Counted from the first letter of the whole stretch, positions 4,816-30,190 are shown. The stretch: DNA of 60,294 bases, filler included, from an uncultured virus (IMG/VR IMGVR_UViG_2049941000_000903) (14 parts of one record of this genome joined end to end with filler, not necessarily neighbours in it), one strand, 5' to 3'. Program-made: numbers and translations. Notes: generated from the sequence alone by a model not told the origin.

Positions 4816-4819
4816 ACGG

Positions 4820-6161: not shown

Positions 6162-6189
6162 TATTGCGTGACCTCGGTGGGTCTATTTG

Positions 6190-6369: not shown

Positions 6370-6462
6370 CTACCACGTCACTTTGCCCCAAAAATACAAT
6401 CTTTTTACAATAAAACACAACCAATGTACAACTTTATTGTAGAATTATTGTGAAATTCGCAA

Positions 6463-8501
6463 GTGATGAAGAGACAGACAGATGATAAGCAGTTCCTCGA
6501 CCCCGTATTCCTTCGGTACGGGCAGGAGGTCTATACCAATGATTTCGCACAAAGCATCCGTGAAGATGTACTCGAAAGAAAGAAGCAAGGTAAGCGTCTC
6601 GCCAATCTCATCCCACAAGAGGGTTTCCAAGAAACGGTGTGTACGCAAGATGCTGATTTACTTATAGTTGGAGGCCGTAAGGGGGGCGGGAAATCTTGGG
6701 TCGCGCTCTTTATGGCGATGCGAAATATGTTCAATCCCGATGTGGCACTCTATGCCTTCCGTAAGTACGAGGACGATGTTAGGCGCGGCCCGTGGAAGGA
6801 GGCCAAGAAAACATACCGAGGATTCGGCACGGCAAAGGATTCGCTCTACGAGTTCGCTTTCCTTGACGGCAAGGGTGCGACGATGAAGATGGAACACATC
6901 GCGGACTTGGGCAAGATTTCCGACCGTTTCCGTGGTGCTGAACTCGCATACATAGACCTTGAGGAGTTGCCCGAACACACACGAGAGAACTTGGATGTCA
7001 TCTTCGACTTCTTGGCGGTCAACCGTAACACCGCCGGGGTCAAGTCACAGATGGTCGCAACGTGCAACCCCGTTGGATGGAAGAACAAACTCCGCAAGTT
7101 CCTGGAGTGGTACATAGACCCCGAAACCGACACCATCATCCGTGAGCGTGACGGCAAGAAACGCTATATGTTCAAGTACGGACACGATGACTCCGAAATC
7201 GCGTGGGGAAACTCGTGGGAGGAGGTGTACGCGCACCCCAAGGCGAAGATGAAGATAGACTTGCTACTTATGGGGCGCGATGACTTGACTCCCGAAGATA
7301 TGATTATGACCGTGCAGTTCATCGAAGGCGATTACTCCGACAACAAGATTCTCCAAATCACGGACAAGCGGTACATCTCGCGCCTTGCATCGAAGGGTGA
7401 CGGCTCGGTGGTCAATGACCTCGCGGGCGTGTGGCGCGATATAGACGAAGGTACGGGATTGCTCACGGGGCAAGACATCAACAAGTTCTTCAAGAACACC
7501 GAGCAACGCGGGGACGGCATCAAACGCGCATCGTGCGATGTCGCCATCGTGGGGGACTTCTTCGTGATATGGGCGGCAGAGGGACGGCACATCTTCGATA
7601 TGTCCGCTTGGTTCGGCGAGATGTCCGATGCCGTCATCCCGTTCATCGAAGAGTTCCTCCGTAAGAACGGCATCAACAAGAANNNNNNNNNNAACCCCCG
7701 AACTCAAGAGTGGCGCGGACATATCCTCGCTCACCGTAAAGACCTTGATGCAGGACTCCTACCTCAAGGCTCTTGACGATGCGAAGGAGTACCAGGACTT
7801 CCTTGACACCATCGTCCGCATCTTCATCGAAGGGTACGGCACGGAAGCGGGACTGCTGCCGGAGTTCAAGGCACTCAACATCCGCATCGCCCTCCAGCCG
7901 TGGACATTTATGGCCGAGTCCGAGGTGGTCAACACCATCGTTCANNNNNNNNNNTATCTGGGCAGCCGAAGGGCGGCACATCTTCGATATGTCCGCGTGG
8001 TTCGGCGAGATGTCCGATGCGGTCATCCCGTTCATCGAAGAGTTCCTCCGTAAGAACGGCATCAACAAGAAGAACTTTACCTTCGATGCCAACGGTCTCG
8101 GCGTGTGGCTGTCCACATCCACCGCTTTCCGCAACTCAAAGCCGTTCAACAACAAGTCCGCACCCACCGACAACCGCTTGTGGAACAACCTCAAGTCCGA
8201 GAGTGCCGAGAAATGGGTCAAGGAGGTCAAGCAAGGTATGTGGTCTATTGACTCCGACCTCTTGGAAAGAAAGTTCACCGACAAGAAAGGACACACCTTC
8301 TCCCTTCGCCAAAGGCTTGACGAGGAAAGACTCGCACTCAAGCGCAAGGACGATACGGGGGCAAGGTTCGAGATAATTGACAAGAAACAGATGAAGCTCG
8401 AAGTGGGACACTCCCCCGACTTCGTGGAAGGACTCATAATGTTTATGCCACTCTTCGAGATTCACCAATCACCAATCCGAAAAGGTTTTAACATCTGGTA
8501 A
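6463..8501 (+). CDS. terL: Terminase large subunit (interrupted by assembly inserts 7683-7955)
   Basis: Walker A GGRKGGGKS, YIDLEE, TCNP; nuclease motifs CDVA, FDANGLG and GHSPD. Confidence 0.9.
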
Positions 8502-8506
8502 TAACT

Positions 8507-9981
8507 ATGCTTTCAATCAATCAAATCCTTACCAAAGAGCCGTTCGTGCGGATGGTTCCCGCCGACGTGCCCTCTCGCAAGGTGGAGTACGAGAAGGTAT
8601 CGCAAGCGGAGTTCTTGCGTGAGTACAACCCCTCCTCGCACAAGATAAACTCCATCAAGTATTACCCCAACCTCTTGTTCCTCGACCAATCCAAGCGCAA
8701 GCACGAGGCGAAAATCCGTTCTCGCGTGGCGGTGGCTTGGCAGAGGAGGATTCACACCAAGAGGCTCGTGGCTCTCACGGGGTACGACCCCGACATCACC
8801 TCCGCACGTTCCAAGTCCGATGAGGCATCACAGGCCAACCTCGCCAAGTTCAAGGAAGGATGGGCACTCAAGGGAATGGACACCACCGTTCACCTCGCCA
8901 TCCGTGATGACCTCAAGGTCGGAGATGTCGCCATCTGCGGCTACAAGTCCGAGGGACGCTTCGGAACACGCATCTTCTCCTACGCCAAGGGAGATACCCT
9001 CTATCCGCATTTCGACCCGATGACGGGCGAACTTGACACCTTCGGACGCGCTTTCACAAGGGAGATAGCAGACCCTCGTAACCCTCTCGCCTTCGAGACC
9101 GTCACCTTCCTTGATGTGTGGACAAAGGACTACTATGTACAGTACCGCAGTGCCGCACCGTGGGAGATAGAGGTCCTCAAGGGCGATGGTTGGGTGGTAT
9201 CCTCTCCGATGCGCCCTCACGCCTTCCCGTTCTGCCCCGTGGCATACCACCGCTACGGTGAGCCTTGTTGGGCGGGGTCGCAGTCCCTCATCGAAACCCA
9301 CGAACTCGCTATGTCGCAACTTGCGGAGAACAACGCACAGTACGCCCTCCGTATCCTCTACGCACTCGGTGCTGAGTTCGAGATGGAAGGCTCTACCGAC
9401 GGCACTCCGAATCAAATCAACTCCACCGACCCTAACGCGAAGGTGGGATTCTTGGAGCCAGCCGATTCAAGCGGTTCGTTCGAGGTGCAACTCAACAAAC
9501 TTGAGAAGGAGATTATGCGGTGTTCCTTCGCCGTGGAGACCCCCGAACTCAAGAGTGGCGCGGACATATCCTCGCTCACCGTAAAGACGCTGATGCAGGA
9601 CTCCTACCTCAAGGCTCTTGACGATGCGAAGGAGTATCAGGACTTCCTTGACACCATCGTCCGCATCTTCATCGAAGGGTACGGAACGGAAGCGGGACTG
9701 TTGCCGGAGTTCAAGGCACTCAACATCCGCATCACCCTTCAGCCGTGGACATTTATGGCCGAGTCCGAGGTGGTCAACACCATCGTTCAGCTTGTGTCCA
9801 TCGGTGTCCTCTCCAAGAAGTCCGCTACGGAGTATGTCTATGAGACGCTCGGTCTCGGAAGTCTTGACGAGGCGAAGCGGTTGCTTCAGCAGGAGCACGA
9901 TGAACTCGTTGGCGAAGCACAAGCCGAAGCCATCACCCTCACCGACCGTGGCAATCCCGTGAACACCGCACGGCAGACCAT
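8507..9981 (+). CDS. Portal protein (3' end in gap)
   Basis: About 490 aa directly after TerL; SPP1-like layout (LYPHFD, PVAYHR). Confidence 0.8.
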
Positions 9982-9992
9982 NNNNNNNNNNC

Positions 9993-10694
9993 ATAAGGAA
10001 GATACTCGTCATCACGCAAGAGTATTCGTTCCTTGGGGAAAGGTTCACCTTCGATGCAAGCAAGGACTTGTCAGACCAAGTGAACCAACTGCTCATCCAA
10101 CTCTCGGATGCGATGCTTGAGGAAGCCGATAGGAGGACGCTAAAGACAATAGACAATGACGATGACGATGACACCGTTCTCGCGTGGATACACCGTGAGT
10201 ACAACGGGGAATCCAATGAAGAAAGGATGGACAGACACGCAAGTGCGCTCAGGTTTCTCCTTGAGGGATACCTTGCCGTATCCTTCGCCAACAAACTCTC
10301 AAGAGCAGACATTCTCGGTGACGCTTTGAGATTCCTCTCCAACCCCTATGGATGGAAACCTATGCAAGACGCACGGCAACACCCCGAAAGGTGGGCAAGC
10401 GAAACCGTAAGGGAGGTTTTCAAGCCTGGGCGCGGCAACGCCGTCAATCCCATAGATGCGATGGCGAATATGATACAGTACGAGGTCTTGGATGGATACC
10501 ATCACGGCGTTCTCCTTGACTACGGGCGTGACTCGGACATCATAGGCTACAATGTACACCGTGGAAGCGGATTCGACTGCGAAACTTGCGACGAGGTGGT
10601 TGCCAACGGGCCTTATTCGCTTGACGAGCAAGTGCTCCCCGTCCATCCTCGCTGTATGTGTTACACCACTCCCGTCCGTGCATCGGAACTCTAA
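9993..10694 (+). CDS. MuF/SPP1 gp7-like minor head protein (5' end in gap)
   Basis: CETC...PVHPRCMC C-terminal motif; follows the portal. Confidence 0.8.
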   Translation: MRKILVITQEYSFLGERFTFDASKDLSDQVNQLLIQLSDAMLEEADRRTLKTIDNDDDDDTVLAWIHREYNGESNEERMDRHASALRFLLEGYLAVSFANKLSRADILGDALRFLSNPYGWKPMQDARQHPERWASETVREVFKPGRGNAVNPIDAMANMIQYEVLDGYHHGVLLDYGRDSDIIGYNVHRGSGFDCETCDEVVANGPYSLDEQVLPVHPRCMCYTTPVRASEL

Positions 10695-10708
10695 CCAACA
10701 CAAGATAT

Positions 10709-10957
10709 ATGGAACAGGCCAAATTCATTAAGAAACTTGCGGTGTGGGTGGCCGTAGTTGCCGCCGTCATCATCGCCATCATCGGACTTTGCTTCGGCAA
10801 GGTCATCGAAGGCAACTTGTTTGCCGAGGTCGCCAAATGGGTCGTAATGGGACTCGTTGTCATCGGCATCCTCGAAGGATTCATCCTTATGGGTGTCGGT
10901 GGCATCGTCTATCACTTCTGGTATGAGCGCAAGCATCCCCCGCTTGACCAGAACTGA
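10709..10957 (+). CDS. Small two-TM membrane protein (holin-like?)
   Basis: Two hydrophobic helices. Confidence 0.45.
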   Translation: MEQAKFIKKLAVWVAVVAAVIIAIIGLCFGKVIEGNLFAEVAKWVVMGLVVIGILEGFILMGVGGIVYHFWYERKHPPLDQN

Positions 10958-13616: not shown

Positions 13617-14338
13617 ATGAGAACCAAGGATGAAGTCGGTCTGGAGGAATTGTTCTCCGGCAGCAAGAGATTAGCGATGAAATACGGCGTGAACGCGGCA
13701 ATCGTTCACCAGACACTCGCATACCACATCAAGGAAGCACAAACGAAAAAACGCAACCTCCGCAACGGACGCTATTGGTACTATGCCACCTACTCCGAAC
13801 TCACCGACAAGATGCCGTTCTTTACCGAAAGACAAGTGCGCTCCGCCATCGGCATACTCGAAAAGGCACACCTCATCACCACCGCACACTTCAAAGGCTC
13901 ACCACAACCACATACCACCTGGTACGACATCCCCGATGCCGTGATGACACACGCATACCCCACACAAAAACGCGGTAAACAAAATGACAAGAGCGTCAGC
14001 CAAAGCGACACGGATGTCAATCAAAGTGACACCAATGTCAGTCAAAGTGACAAAATTGTCACTTCCACTAACCTTATATATACCCATAGTAACACACATA
14101 TAGATACCATACAAAAGAAAAAAGAAATTATTAAAGAAAAAGAACATTTTTGCTCCAATGCCGAGTACNNNNNNNNNNCAGATGTCACTTCCACTAACCT
14201 TATATATACCCGTAATAACACACATATAGATACCATACAAGAAAAAGAAAACAATTCTTTTGTTATTAAAGAAAAAGAACATTTCTGCTCCCCTGCCGAA
14301 TACCACAAGTGGAAAGCCACCCTCCTCAACAACCTCCG
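13617..14338 (+). CDS. Lambda-O-like replication initiator (HTH), gapped
   Basis: KYGVNAAI, GRYWYY and TWY motifs; internal iterons. Confidence 0.7.
13985..14061. repeat. Four 21-bp-period iterons (TGACA-N4-TGTCA-like), probable origin
   Basis: Palindromic units at 13985, 14006, 14027 and 14048 followed by an AT-rich tract. Confidence 0.7.
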
Positions 14339-15025
14339 NNNNNNNNNNGGCTTTTTTGCCGTTTTAATCCCGTTCTAACTGGTTATAAATCACTTACTTT
14401 GCTATATTATTGTTATAATGTAGCATTTTAGGCTATTCCTAGAGGCTTCGCCCGTTGCTGTCTGTCAGTCCTATTTACGCGGCTTTCTCTTTTTCCGATA
14501 TGGGTCAAAAGGGANNNNNNNNNNCGCACAAGTGACTAACTAAGTATGACCATCGACCAAGTAACAGGCATCCTCACGGGCATCCGTGGGCGCGNNNNNN
14601 NNNNACTTGCGGCCCTTTCGGGCCACTTTTCCGGCCTTTTCGGCCTTGTTATAATAGTCTATTCATATAGACTATCGTTACGCCTTGTGGCCGTCCTGAA
14701 AGGCCCTATCTTGCCGCCTAACTTGTTGACGCGCTTGTATTATCCTACTTGCGCGGCCTAAAGGAGCNNNNNNNNNNGCCGCGCGAAGTTCGAATTTCCC
14801 CGTATCCGGCCTATTTTATGCCCGTTTTTGTCAAGTTTAGACCCAAAAATTGACCTTTGTAATACTCTATATAAATAGACTATTGTTNNNNNNNNNNNNN
14901 NNNNNNNNNNNNNNNNNNNNNNNNNNNNNNNTTAATTAATTAANNNNNNNNNNNNNNNNNNNNNNNNNNNNNNNNNNNNNNNNNNNNGAGGCACGCGAGG
15001 GATGGGTAAACTAACACGGACGATT

Positions 15026-16582: not shown

Positions 16583-17116
16583 TTCGGGAAGGGTGAGTTA
16601 ACCGTTTACGATTGCATTGTAACCGCAGTTGACGGAACGAAGACAACCTACACAGAGAAGCCTATCGGTTACTACAAACGCATTTTTGGCGCGGTTGTAA
16701 ACCACAGGGAAGGCACAATGACAACCGCAAAGGTTATGACCGAAGAGGACATAACAAACGCGGTTTTGGCGTGGGAAGGCAAGATACTTGCAACCGCAGA
16801 GAAACTGCAAAGGTACGCACCAGAGGGTTATGATCTCTTGATAGTTCCTTGCAAGAAGGACACAAAGGAAATGTTAACCCTTCCCGATTGCTCAGCGGTT
16901 GTGCGCTCTCAAATCATTGCAAGAAATGAGAAGGCACAGGCCGAAAAAGCAGCAGCAGAGAAGGCACAGGCAGAGCGCAAAGAGAAGGCAGACCGCAGGG
17001 ACATTGCGAAGGCCGTTATGACCGCAGACGGGATTCAGGCAGAGATTATGAAGGCCGTTATTGCAGGGGACTTCGCAAAGGTTGCAGAATTGACCGCACA
17101 GGCGCAGGCAGTGTAG
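16583..17116 (+). CDS. Hypothetical Ala/Lys-rich early protein (start in gap)
   Basis: Frame is open from the gap to the stop codon. Confidence 0.6.
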   Translation, partial: FGKGELTVYDCIVTAVDGTKTTYTEKPIGYYKRIFGAVVNHREGTMTTAKVMTEEDITNAVLAWEGKILATAEKLQRYAPEGYDLLIVPCKKDTKEMLTLPDCSAVVRSQIIARNEKAQAEKAAAEKAQAERKEKADRRDIAKAVMTADGIQAEIMKAVIAGDFAKVAELTAQAQAV

Positions 17117-17135
17117 TAAGAGAGTGAACAAAGTT

Positions 17136-17174
17136 AAACCCCGTTCGGAGTCAAGTCCGGACGGGGTTTTTCTT
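17136..17174 (+). terminator. Rho-independent terminator
   Basis: AAACCCCGTTCGGA-GTCAAG-TCCGGACGGGGTTT followed by a T tract. Confidence 0.8.
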
Positions 17175-17309
17175 TGTGGAAACTTGACAATTTTACTAAT
17201 ATGGTACTTCTTAATTTGACATACTTTTACGGCCGTTTCGACAACTTCGGAACGGCCTTCTTCGTTTCTATGCGAAGGGTTGTCGATGCAAGAGGAAGTC
17301 AAGAAGGTG

Positions 17310-17435
17310 GTCGAACAGATCTCCGAAGTTGTGGCCGAACGGCCACCCGAACGACTCCGAAAAGTCACCCGAACGATTCCGGTCGAACGACTCCGTAAAT
17401 GTACCCGAACGATTATTCACTTCAAACCGAACGAA
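17310..17435 (+). repeat. GAACG repeat array, type A
   Basis: Six CGAACG copies, all on the + strand. Confidence 0.8.
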
Positions 17436-17436
17436 T

Positions 17437-17520
17437 ATGTTTCAAGTTTTATTCATCATCCTTTGCCTTCTCGTGCCCGCGTTCAACGATTGGACGGAGA
17501 AGTGCCGCAACAACGACTAA
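17437..17520 (+). CDS. 27-aa hydrophobic peptide
   Basis: MFQVLFIILCLLVPAFNDWTEKCRNND directly after array A. Confidence 0.4.
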   Translation: MFQVLFIILCLLVPAFNDWTEKCRNND

Positions 17521-17524
17521 CGTT

Positions 17525-17764
17525 ATGAAGAAGTATTATCACCGCCTTTGCGACCTTCTTGAATCGAGAAGGGAACGCGAATGGTTCAAGTCGCTCTCCG
17601 ACTACGACCACCGAAGTATCCAATACGATTTGGATATGGAACATCAAGCCCCCACGACCTCTTCTATGCACTCCGGCAACGGCTTTAACGCGCTTTGTGT
17701 GCAGTACGGGCCGGAAGTGAACACCGCTCCGCTTTACCTTCGTGTTTATCCTAACTTTCGATAG
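17525..17764 (+). CDS. Hypothetical protein
   Basis: 79 aa, tightly packed. Confidence 0.55.
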   Translation: MKKYYHRLCDLLESRREREWFKSLSDYDHRSIQYDLDMEHQAPTTSSMHSGNGFNALCVQYGPEVNTAPLYLRVYPNFR

Positions 17765-17766
17765 TT

Positions 17767-18033
17767 ATGCAAACGTACTACAATGTTTTCGAGGAGTTCA
17801 AGGGCGCGTATTGTGACCTTGCTTACGAATCACTCCACGGCTCGTTTATGAGTGAGGGAGATGCCAGGAACCAGATGAAGTTCCTTGCGCACGAGTTTGA
17901 GCAAAAGTTCAACGGAGTTATGGTGTCCGAGTCCGACAACAAGATTGTCGTGGAGGTTCGCGCTTGCAACAATCTCATCAACGAGGACGAAGTTTCATCC
18001 TTTCACACTTTCTCGGTACGATGCGGATTCTAA
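17767..18033 (+). CDS. Hypothetical acidic protein
   Basis: 88-aa ORF. Confidence 0.6.
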   Translation: MQTYYNVFEEFKGAYCDLAYESLHGSFMSEGDARNQMKFLAHEFEQKFNGVMVSESDNKIVVEVRACNNLINEDEVSSFHTFSVRCGF

Positions 18034-18053
18034 TCACTTCCATCACCCTCAAT

Positions 18054-18292
18054 GCCGAACGAACGGGCCGGAGTGGTCAAACGACCAAGCCGGCCCGCCT
18101 TCGTGAACGACCTTGGGGAAGTGTCCGAACGGGCAAGACCGAACGGGCAAGGGGGAGTGAACGAGGTGGGCGGAGTGCCCGAACGAACGAGGGCGGGAGT
18201 ACCCGAACAACCGAGGGTGTACCCGAACGATTTAGAAGATGCGGCCGAACGAGTAGTCGTTACTCCGAGCGATACGGACGGCCCGCACGAAG
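18054..18292 (+). repeat. GAACG repeat array, type B (G-rich)
   Basis: About 10 GAACG plus GTCAAACGACCAAG and CAAGGGGGAG, shared with 23960-24160. Confidence 0.8.
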
Positions 18293-18312
18293 GTATTTAA
18301 CCACTTTACGTT

Positions 18313-19926
18313 ATGTTATATTATAACTTCAACAACTACGAAGGGTTCAAGGAACGCTTCGGAGTCCGTACTTGCGGAAACGGTGAAAAGTCCCGCAAAA
18401 ACAAGATTCTTCTTTCCTATGTCAAGCAACCTTCGTTGCTCCGCGCTTGCCGTGAAAGCGGCAACTACTCCGAGTTGAACTTGGAGAATATGACCCAACT
18501 TTGGTCAACCTTGAAGTGCAAGATTAGCAACTACACCTTCTCGAACGCATCGAAGGGAACTCTCGGATGTCCGGCCTTTTGGCTTGAGAACTTCTACCTC
18601 GGTTGCAAGCGGTACAAACTTGACGAGTTTGAGGGCATTTGCCAGGACGGTGACTCCACGCGCATCCGTTGCATCATCGTGGCCGAGGGGAAGGTCAAGA
18701 AGGTCAAGCCAGGCAAATTCTTCGGTGCTTGCTTGGATGATATGAACTTCGAGTTGCCCGAACCCGTCCGTCGTTGGATGGAAGAAGAGTTTACCCGTAC
18801 TTGGGAGGTCTATGCGTCCGCGCTTGTGCCGCCCACCACTACACTCCACGTTGACGATAACTTCTCCGACATCTATGACTCGGACGAGTGCAAGGGTGAC
18901 TTCGGTTCGTGTATGGTCGATGACGCCCAGTGGAGTTTCTATCGTGACGCGGTGGACGCGAGTGCCGCCTACCTTCGGAACGACAAGGACGGGAAGATAG
19001 TGGCCCGTTGCATCGTTTTCAACAAGGTACGGGACGAACGAACCGGGGAGTGCCTACGACTTGCAGAACGGCAGTACTCCACGGACGGGGATGAAACGTT
19101 GAAGCGTATGCTCGTTGATGCACTTATCAAGGGCGGGCATATTGACGGCTACAAGAAGGTGGGCGTGGGATGCCACGACAACCGCGCGTATGTCGGAGTT
19201 GACGGCTCGGATTGGTCGTGCCGCAACTTCTCTATTGAGTGCAACTTGGACGATGACGATGTGATGTCCTATCAAGATTCCTTCGTGTACTACGATATGG
19301 AAGGCCGTAGGGCGTACAACTATGACGAAGAGAACACGACCGAGTGCTTGAACGACACATCAACTTACTTCCACGCCAATTACGATGACTTCAACGAGTG
19401 TTACACCACCCAAGAGTTGTACGAAGTCTATGCCCACGGAAGGTGGATGAACACCGACTACGACACGCGCGAGGAATACTTCACCGAGTGCAACGGCACT
19501 TACTATCTCACCGAGGAGTGCGAGTGTTGTCCTCGTTGTGGCGAGTGGTTCTATGTCGGTGACAGGTGCGGTGACTACTACTCCGAACTCACCGAGGAAG
19601 TCTATTGTTGCTCCACTTGTCTTGAGGAGGCCGAAATGGACTACCGAAGAGACCATATGATGTGGTCGGACTATGATTGCGAGGAGTACGACGAGGAGGG
19701 CCACGTTACCATTTGGAAGAGATGGGAATATTCGGAGTATCGCGGTAGCGGTTGCTACTTTGAGCAAACCATCTCCTTCGAGTCTTTACAAAAGATGATT
19801 GACCGCGATGAAGTCATCCTTTGCGGTGGTGTGTGGTACGAAGTGCCGTACACCAAGGAGTACGCGTGGAACGTTAATTGGTGGCACGAAGTCTATCACG
19901 CCCGTGTCCGAGTGTATAACAACTAA
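18313..19926 (+). CDS. Cys/Tyr/acid-rich protein with GSCM motif
   Basis: 537 aa; GSCM, ARCIVF, MSYQDSF; C-terminal CxxC clusters. Confidence 0.7.
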   Translation: MLYYNFNNYEGFKERFGVRTCGNGEKSRKNKILLSYVKQPSLLRACRESGNYSELNLENMTQLWSTLKCKISNYTFSNASKGTLGCPAFWLENFYLGCKRYKLDEFEGICQDGDSTRIRCIIVAEGKVKKVKPGKFFGACLDDMNFELPEPVRRWMEEEFTRTWEVYASALVPPTTTLHVDDNFSDIYDSDECKGDFGSCMVDDAQWSFYRDAVDASAAYLRNDKDGKIVARCIVFNKVRDERTGECLRLAERQYSTDGDETLKRMLVDALIKGGHIDGYKKVGVGCHDNRAYVGVDGSDWSCRNFSIECNLDDDDVMSYQDSFVYYDMEGRRAYNYDEENTTECLNDTSTYFHANYDDFNECYTTQELYEVYAHGRWMNTDYDTREEYFTECNGTYYLTEECECCPRCGEWFYVGDRCGDYYSELTEEVYCCSTCLEEAEMDYRRDHMMWSDYDCEEYDEEGHVTIWKRWEYSEYRGSGCYFEQTISFESLQKMIDRDEVILCGGVWYEVPYTKEYAWNVNWWHEVYHARVRVYNN

Positions 19927-19938
19927 TACTTCGAAGTT

Positions 19939-21060
19939 ATGGAAAATAAGGAATTACTATACGACCTTTATCGTATCTATTCGCCTTCTCGTGGCGAAAA
20001 GCGGCTCAAGAAGTTCGTGAAGAACTACATCCGCACGAACATCCCAGGAGTTGAAATCACCCACGACAATGTGGGGAACATCTACGCGAAGAAGGGGGCG
20101 GGTGACAGCTTCCCTTGCGTGGTGAGTCACCTCGACCAAGTGCAGAAGGTACACGAGAGTGACTTTATGTGCATCGAAGTCGAAGGCAAGGTGTTCGGTT
20201 TCTCGCCGAAGTCTATGGAGATGCGCGGTCTTGGCGCGGATGACAAGAACGGGGTGTGGGTTTGCCTCCAATGTCTTGCCAAGTTCGACAACATCAAGTG
20301 CGCCTTCTTTGTTGGAGAGGAGATAGGGTGTGTCGGTTCATCCGATGCCGATATGAAGTTCTTTGAGGATTGTCGGTTCGTACTCCAGTGCGACCGCCGG
20401 AACGGTGGCGACCTTATCACCTCCATTTGGGGCGACCTTTGCTCCGAAGAGTTCCTCGCGGATATTGACTTCAAGGACTTCGGCTACAAGGAAACGGATG
20501 GCCTCTCCACCGATGTCGGCACACTTAAAGACAACGGCTTGAAGGTGTCGTGTGTGAATATGTCTTGCGGTTACTATGCTCCACACACTGACGAGGAGTA
20601 CACCGACCTGGCCGAACTCCAACACTGTCTTGACTTTGTGTGCCACATCATCGGGAAGTGCACGAAAGTCTATCCCCACGAAGGCTCGTCGTACAAGTGG
20701 GGAGGCAACGACTACGATTGTGATGACCTCTTCGCCCGTCCGTATGGTGGCTATGGAGGTTACACCGCCTACGGGCCGAAACAACCGATAAAGGTTGCCG
20801 CATCTTCCGGCAAGCATTGGGGGTGGAACGAGCGCACACACTCCTACGAGTGGGTGGACGATGAGCCGGAAGAGGACATCGTGAACCAAGATGAGATTGA
20901 TGACATCAACTCCGAGATATACGACTGCTGCCTGAACGGGATGGAAGATAAGGACATCATCACGGACATCCAATACTTCTTCCCGTACTACGACTCCCCT
21001 ACTATCCAAGGGATGATTGACGATGTGCGGAGGTCATTCGACTTCCGTCAGTATTCATAA
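19939..21060 (+). CDS. M20/M28-family zinc metallopeptidase
   Basis: SHLD, GADDKNG, GEEIG, QCDRR and YYAPHT metal-ligand motifs. Confidence 0.85.
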   Translation: MENKELLYDLYRIYSPSRGEKRLKKFVKNYIRTNIPGVEITHDNVGNIYAKKGAGDSFPCVVSHLDQVQKVHESDFMCIEVEGKVFGFSPKSMEMRGLGADDKNGVWVCLQCLAKFDNIKCAFFVGEEIGCVGSSDADMKFFEDCRFVLQCDRRNGGDLITSIWGDLCSEEFLADIDFKDFGYKETDGLSTDVGTLKDNGLKVSCVNMSCGYYAPHTDEEYTDLAELQHCLDFVCHIIGKCTKVYPHEGSSYKWGGNDYDCDDLFARPYGGYGGYTAYGPKQPIKVAASSGKHWGWNERTHSYEWVDDEPEEDIVNQDEIDDINSEIYDCCLNGMEDKDIITDIQYFFPYYDSPTIQGMIDDVRRSFDFRQYS

Positions 21061-21155
21061 CGTATTAAAGTGGAACACCCGTGCGAAGGCGCGATGCCGT
21101 CCGACCGAATCGGGCCACGGGTGCTACTTGTTTAACCCTTTAATACTTCACCATT

Positions 21156-21383
21156 ATGAAAGTATATCAAGTCCTTATCCACAACACGGAGTATGCCCAC
21201 GGCTACAAAGATGACGAGTCGTGGACTACCTTCGGCCCTACCTACCACGATAAGAATCTCGCGGAAAAAGCGAAGGCGCACTACAACGCCACGCACAAAT
21301 GCACCGATGACTTCTACACCTATGCCACAGTGCGAGAGGTCGAGGTCTTTAATTACTTTTCACCAATTCAGTTGAACTTCTAA
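21156..21383 (+). CDS. Hypothetical protein
   Basis: 75-aa ORF. Confidence 0.55.
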   Translation: MKVYQVLIHNTEYAHGYKDDESWTTFGPTYHDKNLAEKAKAHYNATHKCTDDFYTYATVREVEVFNYFSPIQLNF

Positions 21384-21394
21384 ATCCTTATGTT

Positions 21395-21814
21395 ATGAAC
21401 AAAGATTTACACCTTCTCGGTCAACTCACGACCGAACTTCTAATCAACGCCGAAGAGTTCGGTGACGGATGCCTGGGCACGGCCGGAACACTTGTGCCCG
21501 AAGATGTGGAGATGCTCACCCGCGTGGAGGCATTTTGCCAAGAGCCGAAGATCTGGGTCGTGGCCCAGGACGAAGTGGTAGAGGGCGAGATTAACGACCG
21601 CCCCGTCCACATCTTCTTTAATCGTGCCGATGCCCTTGCCGATTTCAACTCCACGGTGTCCGAGGCAAAGAAAGAACTTCTTGAATACGGGTGGACACTC
21701 AACGACGAGTACACCGACGGGGATGACCACCTCTTCTTTGAGGCTTGGATGGAGTCAGAGGCGTATTCCTATTGCCACTATCGCACCGAACTTTATTCCG
21801 TAAACATCAAATAA
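21395..21814 (+). CDS. Hypothetical acidic protein
   Basis: 139-aa ORF. Confidence 0.6.
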   Translation: MNKDLHLLGQLTTELLINAEEFGDGCLGTAGTLVPEDVEMLTRVEAFCQEPKIWVVAQDEVVEGEINDRPVHIFFNRADALADFNSTVSEAKKELLEYGWTLNDEYTDGDDHLFFEAWMESEAYSYCHYRTELYSVNIK

Positions 21815-21822
21815 CAAAAGAT

Positions 21823-22143
21823 ATGGAACAGCTCAACAAAGTAGAACTTCGCGGCATTGTAGGTAATGCGCGGGTACAGAACATCGGCGACACTTCTATG
21901 ATTCGTTTCTCGGTCGCCACCGACCACGTCTTCAGGGACAAGAATGGAGGCGTTGTGGTCGAAACGGCTTGGCATCAGGTCGTGGCCTTCAAGAACGATA
22001 GTATGCCCGACCTCTCCGCTATCGTGCGCGGTGCGGGCGTGGAGGTCGTAGGCCGCCTACGGAACAACCGATTCTTGGACTCCAACGGAAACGAGAGAAC
22101 CGTCACGGAGATACTCGCATCCAAACTTTCAATAGTTAGGTAG
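21823..22143 (+). CDS. ssb: Single-stranded DNA-binding protein lacking the acidic tail
   Basis: LNKVELRG, FSVAT, TAWHQVV, VVGRL and TEILA OB-fold motifs. Confidence 0.9.
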   Translation: MEQLNKVELRGIVGNARVQNIGDTSMIRFSVATDHVFRDKNGGVVVETAWHQVVAFKNDSMPDLSAIVRGAGVEVVGRLRNNRFLDSNGNERTVTEILASKLSIVR

Positions 22144-22147
22144 CCCT

Positions 22148-22525
22148 ATGAACCGAGATGACAACTTCTATGTAGGCCAGCGCGTTCAGTGGAACGACCC
22201 CGGCCTTCTTGACTACGAACCGGAAGATAGACAATGGGTGACAGACCGCATCTTCCGCATTGTCAAGTTCCTTGACGATGATTACGACTCCGTACTCATC
22301 GCGGAGATAAACGGCACATCGGAGGCCGAGGTGTATGTGTCCGAACTCGTACCTCTCGAAAGTGATTGGTATTCCCGTGCCGTGCGACTTCTCGAAGAGA
22401 GGTTCCCGAAGATCTCCTACAACGAACTTTCCGATTTCGTGCTCTTCTATTGGAACAATCTTGACGAGGACGATGCCAACATCTCCACGTTCGTTGACTA
22501 CATCAACGGCATAGACGCAAGTTAG
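22148..22525 (+). CDS. Hypothetical protein
   Basis: 125-aa ORF with GQRVQWNDP motif. Confidence 0.6.
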   Translation: MNRDDNFYVGQRVQWNDPGLLDYEPEDRQWVTDRIFRIVKFLDDDYDSVLIAEINGTSEAEVYVSELVPLESDWYSRAVRLLEERFPKISYNELSDFVLFYWNNLDEDDANISTFVDYINGIDAS

Positions 22526-22838
22526 GCCGTTCCCTTTTGCCCGTACCGCGTGGTTTGACTCCGAGGGTCGCGTCCTCGGACGGGCACGATTCAAGTTATA
22601 AATACTTCGTATTTATACTCCGTTCATTGACATATAGCAAACATCCCCAAAAACGCCACAAAAACGGCTCAAATTCGCGCTTATAGACCGCAAAGGTATA
22701 AAGATATAGGCCACGGCCTAAAAGCCGCAAATAGGCCGCTTTTTAAGGTTCGTTTTTAGGGATTGCAAAGATACGCCCACGGCCCACGAAGGTACGGGGC
22801 GCGAATAAAGTATTACAAACCCATTAAAAAGTTACGTT

Positions 22839-23108
22839 ATGGGAAAACTTTTGAAAACCGATGGTACGACCATCGAAGTCCGGCCCGCTAACGGCACGGA
22901 CTACACCCTCGACGAATTACAGGAGTTTGTAGGCGGCTACATCGAAGTGGTGCGCTGCAAAGAAGAGGGTATGATTCTCGTTATCAACGAGGAAGGTAAA
23001 TTTTTAGACTTGGAGTGGAACGCCCAGGCGAGTAAGATTGCCGACATTCACTTCTGCGACTACATAGTCGGAGATGCACTTTTGTGCAAGGACTCCGAAG
23101 TGAGATAG
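22839..23108 (+). CDS. DUF3846-like protein
   Basis: TLDELQEFVGGYIE, NEEGK and IVGD motifs. Confidence 0.75.
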   Translation: MGKLLKTDGTTIEVRPANGTDYTLDELQEFVGGYIEVVRCKEEGMILVINEEGKFLDLEWNAQASKIADIHFCDYIVGDALLCKDSEVR

Positions 23109-23193
23109 CCGGTCTTGAAGTACGAGGTCGGTAGGACAACTCCGCCCACCGGTGAACGCCCCACCGAAGGCCTCGCCCACGGGGATACTCCGC

Positions 23194-23414
23194 CCGAATG
23201 GTTAGGAAGTTGAACGAACGACCGAACGAAGGCGAACGACGGCCACCTCCGAACGAGCGAACGAACGGTTGAACGACCGAACGACTCCGTGGCCGAACGA
23301 TTGGAAAAATGGTCGAACGATTCGGAAAAGCCGAACGAATGACTCCGAACGAGCCGCCGAATCGCTGGCCGAATCGCCGACCGAGCGCGAACGAAAACTT
23401 TTCAAACAAACGAA
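23194..23414 (+). repeat. GAACG repeat array, type A
   Basis: About 14 GAACG in about 200 bp; shares CGAACGACTCCG, GGCCGAACG and GGTCGAACGA with 17310-17435. Confidence 0.85.
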
Positions 23415-23417
23415 GAT

Positions 23418-23963
23418 ATGACAACGATTTCAACTTTCGCCGTCACGAAAACGAATGACGGCAAAATCGCGGTGAAAGATGCCACGATTTCCGTGGAGTT
23501 CCGCGAAGGACTCGGAATCCGCGTGACGGGACTCGAAGGATTCCCCGCGCGTGAGATTCTCTTGCGAACAATCAAATCACTCGCCGCGTCCGGCTGCATC
23601 GTCGGCAATCGGAAGATAAGCGTGGATGTGGACTACGGAAATCCCGCGTTGCTCCCGAACCGCGAGTACATTATGACGGAACTCTTCGACTTTCCGCTTG
23701 CCGTGGCGATAATGAATGAACTCGGCTTTGCGAAGTTCGAGAACTCAATGCGCGTCCGCTATGTTGGGATGCTACGCCCCGACGGACGAATCGAAGTGCT
23801 CGGCGATGCCGTGTACTTTGCTTGCCACGACCGCGTGTTTATGGGTAGCGAACTCGTGTGCGCCAACACAATCTTCGCCGATTGCAAGGTTGACCCCGGC
23901 CACGTTTACTTGGCAACTTTCCGGCGGTTCTTCAACCTCGCCGCCGAACAAAAGTCCGAATGA
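23418..23963 (+). CDS. Stand-alone ComM/YifB N-terminal (ChlI/Lon-like) domain protein
   Basis: VTGL...RE...R, FDFPLAVAI and GMLRPDGRI match the ComM N-domain pattern; no Walker motifs. Confidence 0.65.
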   Translation: MTTISTFAVTKTNDGKIAVKDATISVEFREGLGIRVTGLEGFPAREILLRTIKSLAASGCIVGNRKISVDVDYGNPALLPNREYIMTELFDFPLAVAIMNELGFAKFENSMRVRYVGMLRPDGRIEVLGDAVYFACHDRVFMGSELVCANTIFADCKVDPGHVYLATFRRFFNLAAEQKSE

Positions 23964-24160
23964 GGTGCACGGTATCCCACCGACCTTCGAACGAGGTGCA
24001 CGGGTGTGGAACGAGGTGCACGGGGACGACCCCGACGGGGAGTCAAACGACCAAGGGGGAGGGTATGGAACGAGCAAGGGGGAGGGTCAAACGAGGGTGA
24101 CGGTGGGTATCAAACGACCAAGGGGGAGTGTCCTTCGAACGAGGGGCACGGTATCCCGAT
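23956..24160 (+). repeat. AACGA repeat array, type B (G-rich)
   Basis: GAGGTGCACGG x3, CAAGGGGGAG x3, TCAAACGA x3. Confidence 0.85.
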
Positions 24161-24203
24161 GAAGAAAAACAACATTTATTGTGATAGATTGACAAAAATA
24201 ACT

Positions 24204-24211
24204 TAACTTTG
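24204..24211 (+). promoter_or_regulatory. Bacteroidota -7 promoter element (leaderless start)
   Basis: TAACTTTG ends 4 nt before the ATG. Confidence 0.65.
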
Positions 24212-24215
24212 TGAT

Positions 24216-25037
24216 ATGAATACATTAGAGCAAGCGATGGAGATGTTCGGCAAGCGGAACGGCATCTACACCTGGAAGTATATGACCGCTTTCGGTATCC
24301 GCGATTTTGACGATTGTACGAGTGGCACACTTGCCGAGTTCGTGGCGTACATACGGGCAAGGGTAGCCCCTTCGACCGCCAAGTTGTATGCGGCAACGTT
24401 ACAGGCGGTGCTCAACCGCTACAAAGACCAAGTGCCGTGTTCGGACTTCAACGGCCTACTCAACCTCCGGGCCGAGAGAAGCCAGAAGGTCTATCTCACC
24501 GAGGACGAACTTGCCCGTCTTGAGCAAGTGCATCCCCGCACACGAAAGGAACGGTATGTGCAACTTGCCTTCCTCATTTCGAGCAAGACGGGTATGCGCG
24601 TGAGTGACGCGACGAGGGTCACGCCCGAAAACCTCCACGGCGGCATCCTCATCTATGTTTCGCAAAAGACGAACAAGGAGGCCAAAGTGCCCGTGAGCGA
24701 CAAGGTGGCGGGGTGGATATGGGAGTTAAACGAGATAGGGGTAGGGCCGAACCTCTCCAACTACGAACTCGCAATCAAGCGGATGTGTATGAAGGCGGGG
24801 GTGGATACGCCCGTCAAGATATTCCGTGGCGGTGAGGAAAAGACCGAACCCAAGTGGAAGTTCGTGGGGTCGCATACGGCCCGCGTGACCTTTTGTACCA
24901 TTATGCACCAAAAGGGAGTCCCCGTGATGGACATTTGCATAATGGCCGGACACTCCTCTCCCGTTATGACCGAAAGGTACATCATCCGTGACGCGCCCGT
25001 ACTCAATGATGCCGCATTAAGTTTTCTCAACTCGTGA
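24216..25037 (+). CDS. Short tyrosine recombinase
   Basis: TGMRVSD, KT, SHTAR, GHS and terminal Y catalytic residues. Confidence 0.9.
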   Translation: MNTLEQAMEMFGKRNGIYTWKYMTAFGIRDFDDCTSGTLAEFVAYIRARVAPSTAKLYAATLQAVLNRYKDQVPCSDFNGLLNLRAERSQKVYLTEDELARLEQVHPRTRKERYVQLAFLISSKTGMRVSDATRVTPENLHGGILIYVSQKTNKEAKVPVSDKVAGWIWELNEIGVGPNLSNYELAIKRMCMKAGVDTPVKIFRGGEEKTEPKWKFVGSHTARVTFCTIMHQKGVPVMDICIMAGHSSPVMTERYIIRDAPVLNDAALSFLNS

Positions 25038-25477
25038 AACCGCGTGAACTCATAGCCCTCTTGGAGTTGGAGCATCCCGAACAAGAGGTGGTACTTATGG
25101 CCGTCAAGCGTCAACGCCTGATGCAAATCCTCGGCATCAACGCCGCCAAGAGCGCGGAGTTGGGGGCGATAGTCCTTGATGTGGATTGGTCGGCGGAGAA
25201 CAAGGTCGAGGAAACGAAGATTGACAAACTCGAACGGCAAAGGGCACGGCTCACCAAGGAGATAGAACGGCTCACGGACGAGGCCAAGGAAGAACTCGCA
25301 CGTTCCATCCGTGTACGAAGCAAGAGCGATATGACCGAGGAGAACCGGATGATAGACGAAATTCTCGGCCCGATGAAGAAAGGCCGCAAGAAAAAGAAGT
25401 CAACCGCCAAACGCGGGCGGGGGCGGCCACGCAAGTACAAGAAACCCGAAGAGATGGCGAAAGAAGGCGAGGAATAG
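25034..25477 (+). CDS. Coiled-coil protein with AT-hook
   Basis: KRGRGRPRK; GTGA overlap with the recombinase. Confidence 0.6.
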   Translation: MKPRELIALLELEHPEQEVVLMAVKRQRLMQILGINAAKSAELGAIVLDVDWSAENKVEETKIDKLERQRARLTKEIERLTDEAKEELARSIRVRSKSDMTEENRMIDEILGPMKKGRKKKKSTAKRGRGRPRKYKKPEEMAKEGEE

Positions 25478-25479
25478 TC

Positions 25480-26022
25480 CTACTTCTTTCGCTTTTCCTT
25501 TTCGAGTTCCTTCTTCGCCGCGTTGTATATGTTACACTCGGTACACCGTAACGGCATATACACGCGCATAATGTCTTGGTCTTGTTGGCTACCCTCCTTG
25601 AACCGCATCAAGTCCGAGAGCATCTTGAGGTACTCGCGCTTGTCTTTCTCTTCCGTAAGGGTGTTCGCTTGCGCGTTGAGGAACTGGATGAATTGGTTGA
25701 TGTCCGTGAAGTCGAATCCCTCGGTCAAGTCCATTTGGGATGTGAGGGCAACGCCCGGTTGTACCTCCATCTTGGACAACTCCACCTTGACGCGCTCCGA
25801 TATGCGCATCTCGGCAATAGTCCGCACCGACTCGAAGTACTCGTTCACTTCCGGACGGCGGCGCCAATTTGCCGCCATCGTGCGGAGAGAATCGGGGGTG
25901 AGGTGTGACACATCGTGGCAAATGGAGTAGATTTCCTTTGCGTACTTCACATTGTTATGGAAGGCGTAGGTTATCGCCGCCTTCTCCATAATCGTCAATT
26001 CGTTATACTTATCCGCTTTCAT
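25480..26022 (-). CDS. Probable terminase small subunit
   Basis: HTH-like N-terminus ([10 protein letters not shown]) and C-terminal YMPLRCTEC. Confidence 0.5.
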
Positions 26023-28033: not shown

Positions 28034-28915
28034 TTATCTTATCCAATACTGCTCTTGTTTTCTCCTTTGGGCATTCCACTTATCAGACGAAGCACCACCC
28101 TCTACACTACTCAAGAACTTGCTCATACTTTCCTTGTGATAATCATCATCGAAGTATTTGATATTATCCTCTATGGATTCTGCACCATATTCATCTACCA
28201 TCTCCTTTAACTTGTTAATGTCATCCATTGAGTACGGAATTTTAGGTAATATAGTCTTCCATCTTTGCCATTCCTTTGCACTAAAAGGATACTGATTCTT
28301 GTTATCACCCTCGCGTGAGGAATCATCAACCTCACTAACAACCTTATCAACTTGTTGATGCTGATTATTTAAAAAAATAATTTCTTTTTCTTGGTTGGGA
28401 GTCTGGTTGTTACAGTGGTTGTTATCTATTGTATATATATACTCGGTTGAAATTCCGCCCGTGGACGATTGCAAATCCTCTCGTGGTCGGGATGTTTCTT
28501 CATTCGTGGACGGTTGAGATTTCTCCCGCCCTTTCTTGTCCCAGAGCGAGATTAAATTAGGTTGATAATATGCGATGGTTTCTTTATCTACGGTGTACCA
28601 AGGAGTCCTATCGTAAGCCTTTTTGTTATACACTCCCCTTTCAACAAGTTTTAATTCAACAAGACATCTCAATGCCCTCTTCGCTTGCCATTCGGTCACA
28701 TAATCGTAGTCCGGAACTTTGAGAATATCCGCCACGGAGAAATGAGTCCAGTAGCGACCATCGTGAAGGTTCTTGCCGTCGTGCTCGTTCTTTAAGACCC
28801 AATAACAAATGTATTGGAAGAAGTCAACGGCGATGTAATCACCTTTTGTTTCTCTTATTAACTTTCGACTGAGGGTTACTAACTCGCCCTCGTACTTTTG
28901 ATAGTGTTTTCCCAT
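28034..28915 (-). CDS. Second lambda-O-like replication initiator (HTH)
   Basis: HDGRYWTH and YNKKAYDRTPWY motifs; internal CGTGG(A/T)CG repeats at 28460, 28482 and 28505. Confidence 0.7.
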   Translation of the reverse strand: MGKHYQKYEGELVTLSRKLIRETKGDYIAVDFFQYICYWVLKNEHDGKNLHDGRYWTHFSVADILKVPDYDYVTEWQAKRALRCLVELKLVERGVYNKKAYDRTPWYTVDKETIAYYQPNLISLWDKKGREKSQPSTNEETSRPREDLQSSTGGISTEYIYTIDNNHCNNQTPNQEKEIIFLNNQHQQVDKVVSEVDDSSREGDNKNQYPFSAKEWQRWKTILPKIPYSMDDINKLKEMVDEYGAESIEDNIKYFDDDYHKESMSKFLSSVEGGASSDKWNAQRRKQEQYWIR

Positions 28916-28937
28916 TGTGTGCGGTTTTGGGTTAAAC

Positions 28938-29090
28938 AAAAAACTCCAAAGCATCTCTGCCTTGGAGTTTCAAGCTGGGCGCACCCACCCTTTCGGGTCG
29001 CACACGGGAATTGCCCACTATATGTCAATATACAATTCGGACTTTTGTGTGGTACTTCCTGCCGTGTGCGTAGGCAGAGATAACCTCTGT
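28938..29090 (-). promoter_or_regulatory. Structured leader with terminator/antiterminator
   Basis: Terminator 28941-28970 with U tract; 29072-29081 is complementary to its 5' arm and loop; TATATTTG promoter near 29092-29099. Confidence 0.65.
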
Positions 29091-29566: not shown

Positions 29567-30190
29567 TTAATCAAGCCCTATGTGCCCCACGACAATAGCC
29601 ACGTTGAGAATGTCGGATTTGGGGATGGTATAGTCGGGGTATTCGTCGCGGTTCTCCGACCGACAAATGACGGAGTTGTCATCATCGGGGCAAGGCAGAA
29701 GTTTCTTGACAACGCATCCTTGGGTGGTGCTCAAGACATAGACGCGCCCCCATTGGAAGAACGAAGGGTCTTGGACTACGCGGATGGCAAGTATCTCACC
29801 GTTCCGGAATCTCGGCGACATACTATCACCGTCCACTCGGATGGCTAACTCCGCACCCTTGTCAATGAAGTCCGGCACATAGCAAACCTCTTGAGTGTTG
29901 AGAAAACTTGATGGAATATTCTCCGCGAGTGCGCCCGCTACCGCCGAGAACGGAAGAAGAGGTAATCCCGATACCCCGCCCTTGAACATCGGGCCTTCGC
30001 CCGTGACGAGATAATCAAGCGAAAGTTGTGGTATTTTTTCCACAACCCGAAGCATCGTCTTGGCGGTCATCCCGTCCGTGATTTTCATAAGGGTATTGTA
30101 GGACATACCCATATCACGCTCCAAGTGGCGAAGGTTCTTGAATCCGGCGGCTACGGCCACCTTTTCCAAACGTGTATGCAAATTTTCCAT
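29567..30190 (-). CDS. cI: CI-like repressor (HTH plus S24 peptidase)
   Basis: YLVTGEGPM, VDGDSMSP and VVKKL motifs. Confidence 0.88.
   Translation of the reverse strand: MENLHTRLEKVAVAAGFKNLRHLERDMGMSYNTLMKITDGMTAKTMLRVVEKIPQLSLDYLVTGEGPMFKGGVSGLPLLPFSAVAGALAENIPSSFLNTQEVCYVPDFIDKGAELAIRVDGDSMSPRFRNGEILAIRVVQDPSFFQWGRVYVLSTTQGCVVKKLLPCPDDDNSVICRSENRDEYPDYTIPKSDILNVAIVVGHIGLD

Follow-up and report, generated by a model that had tools for sequence, protein, structure and literature searches.

We analysed a window of 60,294 nucleotides (nt), filler included, from an uncultured virus (IMG/VR IMGVR_UViG_2049941000_000903); it consists of 14 parts of one record of this genome joined end to end, not necessarily neighbours in it, and many short stretches are masked as N. 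Between a promoter-like site at about 17.2 kb and 25.5 kb lies an accessory operon with all of its genes on the + strand, and between these genes are four arrays rich in the word GAACG, which we call A1, B1, A2 and B2 in their order along the operon (Table 1). The hexamer GAACGA is a real and widespread sense-strand label of the accessory operon in a family of Bacteroidales phages from the gut and rumen.

Strand-polar arrays in the operon

A first reading, made from the sequence alone (the sequence-only reading), had described four arrays on one strand, placed as array, three small open reading frames (ORFs), array and again as array, one ORF, array, the last of them beside a short tyrosine recombinase. 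Both the places and this order are borne out. GAACGA occurs 35 times on the + strand of 17000-25500 and not at all on the - strand, and the operon body holds six sense and no antisense copies. When GAACG was counted per strand over the whole window, as that reading had suggested, 104 copies were found on + and 80 on -; CGAACGA is found 27 times on + and 4 times on -. Of the 48 GAACGA copies on the + strand of the window, 29 are inside the four arrays, and the only 200-bp bins with at least 4 GAACG on one strand are array bins, all of them on + (17200, five against none; 18000, eight against none; 23200, 14 against none).

Each array was compared with 2000 mononucleotide shuffles of itself. The six GAACG of A1 (shuffle mean 0.20, maximum 3), the ten of B1 (mean 0.59, maximum 4) and the 15 of A2 (mean 0.64, maximum 5) go beyond what composition gives, whereas the four of B2 (mean 0.59, maximum 4) are within chance as a count of the exact word; B2 is counted as an array by its RAACGA units and G-rich tails. 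Units are spaced 4-26 nt apart, mostly 14-26, and the spacing is mostly no multiple of 3.

The division of the arrays into subtypes A and B could be upheld only in part. The shared words are present, with CGAACGACTCCG at 17348, 17384 and 23278, GTCAAACGACCAAG at 18076 and 24042, and CAAGGGGGAG at 18148, 24052, 24075 and 24119, and the A arrays have no 9-mer in common with B2. However, GGCCGAACG is also present in B1 (at 18243), GGTCGAACGA also occurs outside the arrays (at 12963) and, because A1 and B1 have the 15-mer TGTACCCGAACGATT in common, B1 is a hybrid and the typing only partly clean.

The arrays are non-coding repeats, and there is little sign of structure in them. The z-scores of their folds are not significant for A1 (-0.94), A2 (-0.12) and B2 (-0.70), and that of B1 (-3.4) comes from one local hairpin. 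No inverted repeat or hairpin site for the motif was found, with zero reverse-complement GAACGA in the 8.5 kb of 17000-25500, and a search of Rfam gave no family, its lone match being a chance microRNA (E 0.3).

Table 1. Positions of the operon features and their neighbours, counted from the first letter of the window (aa, amino acids)
Feature	Position	Strand	Remarks
Terminator of upstream gene	17136-17169
Promoter-like stretch, TTGACA ... TTAATTTG	17184..17218	+	After the upstream gene's terminator; likely start of the accessory operon
Terminator-like leader hairpin	17231..17257	+	11 pairs, then a T-rich tail; 3' arm motif-like (GGAACGGCC)
Array A1	17310..17435	+	6 GAACG and GAACAG; 36-nt duplicated unit; ends 2 nt before ATG 17437
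Cargo 1, small ORFs	17437-17520, 17525-17764, 17767-18033	+	No family
Array B1	18054..18292	+	10 GAACG and AAACGA, GAACAA, GAGCGA; units of motif plus G-rich tail; one strong hairpin
Operon body	18313..22525	+	537-aa Cys-rich protein, M42/M20-like peptidase, 75-aa and 139-aa ORFs, SSB, 125-aa ORF
DUF3846 gene	22839..23108	+	E 1.1e-13; precedes A2
Array A2	23194..23414	+	14 GAACG, spacing 4-20 nt; ends 4 nt before ATG 23418
Cargo 2, 181-aa ORF	23418..23963	+	Sub-threshold ChlI match only
Array B2	23956..24160	+	8 RAACGA/GAATGA units, each followed by GGTGCACGG or CAAGGGGGAG
Promoter-like stretch of recombinase, TTGACA ... TTAACTTTG	24189..24211	+	4 nt before ATG; kept in relative L201
Xer-like tyrosine recombinase, 273 aa	24216..25037	+	Last conserved operon gene
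147-aa protein	25034..25477	+	Basic C-terminal tail with GRGRPRK; also in L121, L201, L202, L204, L216
f180, 180-aa protein	25480..26022	-	Beside the motif zone; candidate motif reader
Full-length integrase, 387 aa	26291..27454	+

Cargo 2 had been called a ComM fragment; the sole basis for that name is its ChlI match, which at E 0.016 and 15.5 bits is short of the cut-off of 27. The two promoter-like stretches seem to resemble the -33/-7 promoter consensus of Bacteroides. Pairing is possible between CGACAACTTCGG, which makes up the loop and 3' arm of the leader hairpin, and CCGAAGTTGTGG near the beginning of A1 (17323-17334), so that the leader has two alternative structures; the z-score of its overall fold is not significant. 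The gap of 313 nt upstream of the DUF3846 gene holds a perfect inverted repeat of 9 bp around a spacer of 3 nt (TATAAATAC-TTC-GTATTTATA, 22597-22617), which looks like an operator; the word TAATACTTC(G) also recurs at 19924 and 21141. The first two proteins of the operon body (18313-21060), namely the Cys-rich protein, which has no family, and the peptidase (phrog_4191), form a conserved pair 6-8 kb upstream of the recombinase. They occur together in nine loci (the window and the relatives L172, L175, L177, L179, L182, L183, L186 and L193), and the pair is broken in L077, with the 537-aa protein only, and in L184, with the peptidase only.

The genes of the window are those of a temperate phage, with a major capsid protein (904-2058, -), a large terminase (6463-7776), a portal (8507-10120) and an S24/LexA-type repressor (29567-30190, -), as well as methyltransferases, a sliding clamp and an ERF recombinase. 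At 56.8-59.2 kb are TrkH and an outer-membrane efflux gene. A block of large - strand genes without family matches contains two long tandem duplications, one of 169 bp x 2 (46203-46529, 97% identity) and one of 262 bp x 2 (47458-47970, 96% identity).

The motif in related phages

Near-identical DNA was found in bovine-gut and other animal-gut metagenomes (21 runs from 15 studies, the first three of the runs possibly being the source sample). No GenBank phage had a DNA match to 17110-25100 of the window, and scans of IMG/VR with a single protein (the 537-aa protein or the recombinase) found nothing, whereas alignment-based scans did find relatives. An alignment of 19 recombinase sequences was used to gather 80 viral, 80 metagenomic and 21 genomic loci. 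The gene was found by tblastn in 158 of the 160 viral and metagenomic loci, which were collapsed to 67 clusters with one representative each, all picked via the recombinase. Where loci have a named host it is a member of the Bacteroidales, bar one record titled Clostridium and one titled 'bacterium'.

When all hexamers up to 3 kb from the recombinase on either side were compared over the 67 representatives, GAACGA proved the most strand-biased (389 sense and 106 antisense copies), with CGAACG second and CCGAAC sixth. An excess of at least 4 copies is seen in 20 of the 67 loci, and sense arrays in 16 (25 arrays); antisense arrays occur in none. The motif is common to phages of 33-56% G+C. The restriction to one operon shows in L216, in which a run of about 19 small + strand genes ending with the recombinase (3775-10949) contains 50 sense and no antisense copies, and the remaining 11.6 kb contain one sense and two antisense copies. 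Over the 20 loci with the strongest excess, the motif is densest in the recombinase gene itself, reaching 6.3 per kb.

A blind pattern scan of viral contigs gave at least 120 loci, mostly GAAC/GAACGAAC microsatellites or other repeats; among the matches listed, the only recombinase-bearing phages with dispersed arrays are L031, L033 and L077. L031, a prophage of 34% G+C beside a tRNA gene, has three CGAACGA arrays with a spacing of 16 or 25 nt; they flank a two-gene cargo and a short-recombinase homologue, are found between genes where no ORFs are listed, and have the extended word GTACCCGAACGA in common with the window. The proposal that A and B arrays bracket mobile cargo is not supported by this comparison, as some relatives have one array, some three and some dispersed arrays, and the motif spans the whole operon.

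Five loci from the pattern scan share a protein with these phages; the recombinase is present in one of the five, and two of the four without it are complete genomes. Their repeats are of other kinds and were counted neither for nor against. They comprise 10-11-nt or 4-nt periodic runs in L073, L039, L069 and L053, that of L073 inside a listed long open frame, and, in a complete 41.9-kb phage without the recombinase (L067:3560-3680), a perfect 21-nt tandem repeat, GTACCGAAAACGAACGAAAAC, in about 3.5 copies in an intergenic control region, the core of which is similar to the motif and the kind of repeat different. Loci of the LoVEphage/BI-TP1 type were dropped as evidence: their CCGAACTAT repeats are inside an annotated gp54 gene, and the four in one frame (Pro-Glu-Leu-Leu) may be a repeated peptide and not a DNA signal. 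In L302 (Bacteroides phage BI-TP1, ~6600-6950), L137 and L150, CCGAACTAT lies in the 3' part of an annotated 'processivity factor' gene.

In motif-saturated loci, selection acts at the level of the nucleotide sequence. Across the recombinase genes of eight such loci, GAACGA spells 33 of the 41 Glu-Arg dipeptides and forms the context of 38 of the 42 Asn-Asp/Glu pairs. One lineage has thus rewritten the very codons of its recombinase to accommodate the motif. Copies are also placed at gene borders: the form TAA..CCGAACGA-nn-ATG recurs between a stop and the next start in motif-rich relatives, 21 of 422 copies sit 2-3 nt before an ATG, and GAACG lies within 15 nt of the start in 16 of 58 ORFs from eight loci.

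Lineages without GAACGA carry other polar words at their gene starts. L219, L223, L227 and L232 have a near-invariant junction of ~30 nt ending in TGAGTTATGA before nearly every small gene (for example, L227:586-8484), upstream of the recombinase and often after a G+C-rich half-stem. In L129 the word is GCCTTATG, in a junction ending in GCCTTATGA; in L234 it is GGACGA and in L166 GAAAAC. The window itself has a second conserved gene-junction sequence, distinct from the arrays, in which GTTATG starts six module genes (contexts 17522, 17764, 18310, 19936, 21392 and 22836), several of them after TAAnaCTTC; five of these starts fall in 17525-21395, in the operon body or just upstream, and the sixth is at 22839. 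Because other lineages carry other words and the window carries GTTATG, we take polar, lineage-specific gene-junction sequences to be the general rule. GAACGA is the commonest class of junction word, and the arrays are its extreme form.

Signals known from bacterial chromosomes and ribosomes were also considered. In a 7.1-Mb Bacteroides genome, used as a stand-in and not the true host, CCGAACGA occurs 156 times (76 + 80) and its reversed control 203 times (117 + 86); as it is not over-represented there, a Chi or translocase-orienting (KOPS-like) host signal was rejected. Pairing with 16S rRNA was rejected as well, since a Bacteroides 16S rRNA gene contains neither TCGTTC nor TCGTT anywhere and so offers GAACGA no complement. 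Replication-origin iterons were rejected on the grounds that the initiator-like gene at 13617-14378 (phrog_11233, E 3e-22) bears its own, unrelated 21-bp tandem repeat (13980-14061, 3.9 copies), which probably represents the origin iterons. A second replication-initiator-like gene lies at 28034-28954 (-), and no relatives of the window's initiator-like proteins were found in any fetched locus.

Recombinase, gene turnover and candidate readers

Alone among the proteins, the recombinase occurs in every motif-rich locus (21 of 21), a linkage that is partly by design because all loci were selected through it. It has a two-domain build without an arm-binding domain (Pfam Phage_integrase, E 2.5e-16), and the catalytic residues R128, K151, H220, R223, H246 and Y255 are invariant in all 19 aligned sequences. 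The integron-integrase model (NCBIfam TIGR02249) gives 20.2 bits against a cut-off of 265. The best sub-threshold model for the recombinase is of the XerA type, at 39 bits against 220, and the XerC and XerD equivalog cut-offs are not reached.

To follow gene turnover, the window was compared with contigs of four runs from four studies that are 85-99% identical to it. The ORF at 17767-18033 is replaced by unrelated DNA of ~280 nt (17765 to 18047/18050) in three runs of three studies, and the ORF at 21156-21383 is absent from three runs, the joint (21149 to 21391) restoring a canonical junction. Breaks of context fall at the start of A1 (17308, two runs), at the start of B1 (18042, one run) and at a plain gene end (22141, three runs). 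The arrays themselves vary, with the loss of a 12-nt unit and the replacement of a 64-nt stretch by 26 nt in A1, and with +1 insertions in A2 at 23398 (three of the four runs) and in B2 at 24001 (all four). No joint of an A to a B array was seen in the four runs, the contigs of which cannot show rare circles. Among 68 representatives (the 67 and the window), the small ORFs are mostly singletons; families F61 and F33 stand in opposite order in L219 and L227, and family F154 is common to lineages with different junction words.

Two protein families were considered as possible readers of the motif. The first, f180, is encoded beside the motif zone in 27 of the 68 representatives, and in the window, L121, L122, L165, L204, L212 and L216 its gene lies no more than ~1.5 kb from an end of the zone, usually on the opposite strand. 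In motif-rich loci, the f180 genes of opposite orientation contain seven sense copies and one antisense copy. In a structural model of f180 (pLDDT 80), only the N-terminal part gave phage matches, all of them to small terminases and weak (E217 TerS, Z 5.9 over 68 residues; NV1 TerS, Z 5.5 over 89 residues; SF6 DNA-binding domain, TM 0.58-0.59; Foldseek E above 0.5 for every match). Against the PDB the model had no significant match, and the solved mycobacteriophage repressor is not among the matches listed. The second, f134, is the only family exclusive to the most saturated loci (8 of 8) and is absent from the window. Its model (pLDDT 80) shows no nucleic-acid-binding fold, with weak matches to a type-III-secretion chaperone and AcrIIC2 (E 0.1-0.5), and a search of the Atlas with f134 found nothing.

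A polar label and how it may be read

We tentatively favour an interpretation in which a lineage-specific factor binds the sites, whose polarity follows transcription, and thereby controls the operon, with cross-over at the junctions as a side effect. The arrays are dense clusters of a short asymmetric site, with the core CCGAACGA, which labels only the sense strand of the integrase-proximal operon. A sequence-specific factor encoded by the phage lineage would bind these core sites, either on the nascent or mature transcript, which we slightly favour, or on DNA in one orientation with respect to RNA polymerase, and would hold down or time the expression of the whole operon. Single copies sit at gene starts and within genes, and the arrays in the leader and between cistrons would give high avidity. 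As gene borders repeatedly carry these short sequences, the sequences would double as cross-over points, through which the genes of the operon would be exchanged like cassettes.

Reader-controlled sites acting in cis fit best because the polarity follows the transcription unit, the spacing is irregular, structure is lacking and copies are start-proximal, and also because of the nucleotide-level saturation, the lineage-specific words and the absence of host enrichment; the differing junction words fit a reader that co-evolves with them. Protein-binding arrays in DNA or RNA that control accessory genes had been one of the proposals of the sequence-only reading, and it is the one that best fits a signal confined to one transcription unit, present in distant phages, saturating coding sequence and without a host-wide counterpart.

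Several observations weigh against this interpretation. No GAACGA excess is seen in 47 of the 67 recombinase loci, and the 20 loci of the density profile had been selected on the strength of that excess. The start-proximal peak is one of several (15 copies at distance 2, but 18 at 37, 14 at 29 and 13 at 19), and because other peaks are equally high the pattern is suggestive only; in the window, one array copy alone (17429) stands directly before a start codon. The recombinase gene of the window carries no copy, with none of its three Glu-Arg dipeptides written GAACGA, and lineages therefore differ in the spread of the label. No binding factor was identified, given the weak matches of f180 and the lack of a nucleic-acid-binding fold in f134, and the excess of sense copies in f180 genes, which would otherwise speak for the interpretation, might come from codon bias of the ordinary kind.

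In T4, a short word at many early-gene starts is read on RNA by a phage nuclease or repressor (RegB and RegA) for joint shut-off. This is an analogy only: no RegA or RegB homologue was found, and the phage here is a temperate phage of Bacteroidales. The closest analogues are the start-associated sequences (SAS/ESAS) of Cluster K mycobacteriophages and the stoperators of Cluster A. The SAS study (PMC3203893) places SAS/ESAS 3-7 bp before the starts of non-structural genes and gives their function and reader as unknown. Like the motif, they are short asymmetric repeats in one orientation, belong to non-structural genes, precede unrelated starts and are essentially absent from the host genome; they differ in being 13 bp long with a Shine-Dalgarno-like core and in occurring once per gene (PMC3203893). 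The label described here has a 6-8-nt core without a 16S complement, forms arrays of 6-14 copies, saturates coding sequence and belongs to phages of Bacteroidales hosts. Stoperators are asymmetric sites of the L5-type repressor in many transcription-oriented copies, read by a phage protein to silence transcription units, with lineage-specific specificity; they are 13-mers found genome-wide, in more than twenty copies that are mostly single and intergenic (PMC9283540). The present sites share the orientation with transcription (35 to 0 in the window, 50 to 0 in L216, and 25 arrays to 0 in the 67 loci), but they are limited to one operon, much denser and clustered, and no homologous repressor was found.

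A possible, if unlikely, alternative dispenses with a dedicated reader: the repeats would be ordinary expression signals read by the host (gene-start contexts, spacers and promoters of short-leader genes) and kept alike by recombination, and the arrays by-products of slippage or unequal crossover. The ~30-nt junctions of sister lineages resemble an A/T-rich start context or a -7-like box 4-5 nt before ATG, GTTATG recurs at six gene starts of the window, and the arrays differ by unit indels among relatives. The PeSLs of T4-type phages provide a model, in that these short regulatory sequences flank ORFans in a hyperplastic region and the indels and replacements of relatives fall at them, with precedent for shuffling and mini-circles; a PeSL is a promoter plus a terminator stem-loop (PMC2839356). 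Among relatives of the window, the joints of the replaced and the lost ORF and the breaks at 17308 and 18042 likewise fall at repeated units, with the break at 22141 as an exception. GAACGA arrays, by contrast, have no consistent stem-loop, and the leader has a single hairpin (17231-17257). Host signals, moreover, would have no need to occupy 33 of 41 Glu-Arg codon pairs inside a gene, GAACGA has neither a complement in Bacteroides 16S rRNA nor enrichment in a host genome, and neutral by-products would hardly account for arrays of 6-14 copies that stand in four places of the window and in 16 of 67 loci and are sense without exception.

We consider it doubtful that the operon is an integron-like platform, in which the Xer-like recombinase inserts, excises and shuffles genes at polar junctions and the arrays are stacked or accessory recombination sites. 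In integrons (IntI/attC), a tyrosine recombinase lies by a co-oriented, diverse gene array separated by conserved sites. There are likenesses: the cargo is all on the strand of the recombinase, extremely diverse and mostly of singleton ORFs, with conserved sites between genes; the recombinase keeps all of its catalytic residues and is the one protein that accompanies the motif throughout; one gene is swapped and another lost, with a canonical junction restored; contexts break at the starts of A1 and B1; and families F61 and F33 differ in order between two loci, with F154 shared by lineages of different junction words. Yet there are no attC-like hairpins, the fold is not significant in three of four arrays, and the motif saturates coding sequence, for which recombination sites have no need. 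The recombinase is distal, at the 3' end and not by a promoter-proximal insertion site, it fails the integron-integrase model, and its link with the motif owes something to how loci were chosen; the four runs gave no A-to-B joint (their contigs being blind to rare circles), and other breakpoints, such as 22141, are plain gene borders. Of the cassette acquisition that had been proposed, what stands is the link with an intact short recombinase, the single-gene swaps and losses, and some breakpoints at junctions or array edges. The broader version, that temperate phages of Bacteroidales have a cassette platform of their own in which the recombinase captures, excises and reorders ORFan genes at non-hairpin polar sites, with GAACGA and TGAGTTATGA as specificity classes, seems to us still more doubtful.

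It is improbable that the sites serve the small-terminase-like f180 in DNA architecture, as a pac region or as an excision-directionality or architectural array by the integrase, with the polarity reflecting head-to-tail binding or the direction of packaging. Its gene is close to an end of the zone in the window and six other loci, its N-terminal phage matches are all to small terminases, and the large terminase gene at 6463-7776 has no evident small-terminase gene next to it. Against this, the structural resemblance is weak (every Foldseek E above 0.5, Z lower than usual for helical models), f180 is also found in lineages with other words, and the zone tracks a transcription unit and not a point. 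Known terminase and excisionase sites are far smaller than a 3-7 kb zone with copies inside genes.

We regard it as very improbable that translation runs through the arrays as low-complexity ORFs (for example, 18052-18300, of 82 aa, or 17286-17528), a possibility that the sequence-only reading had itself raised against its proposal. Frames are open across A1 and B1, the ORF at 18052-18300 fits neatly between its neighbours, and the stop of the frame through A1 overlaps ATG 17525. However, the motif spacing is no multiple of 3, and open frames of this length turn up in 18-39% of composition-matched shuffles, since only 11-19% of the array letters are T. The +1 insertions in A2 and B2 and the shortening from 64 to 26 nt in A1 also speak against translation, as do the arrays of L031 in gaps without listed ORFs and the lack of a family match. 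Least credible of all is a host-read polar DNA signal (Chi or translocase-orienting) concentrated on the phage: the motif is short, strand-polar, over-represented and beside an Xer-like recombinase, but it is not over-represented in the stand-in chromosome, the word varies among phage lineages of related hosts and the zone ends at operon borders.

In the literature that we searched, neither these arrays nor an integron-like system of Bacteroidales phages is described. These phages are among the most abundant viruses of the gut and rumen, and their integrase-proximal operons are full of small ORFans that probably have host-takeover and anti-defence functions. If the recombinase does act on the sites, they would represent a new cassette-capture system; a cassette platform would be a functional analogue of the integron with another site chemistry, and a main source of ORFan diversity in gut and rumen phages. 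Under the interpretation that we favour, recombination at shared junctions is a possible explanation of the extreme turnover of ORFans. A conserved, polar and operon-wide label would help to find such operons in metagenomes, would offer a way to study how they are silenced in lysogens, and would lead to an unknown regulator or nuclease in a phylum that, to our knowledge, has no Shine-Dalgarno-based initiation and no classical RNA chaperones.

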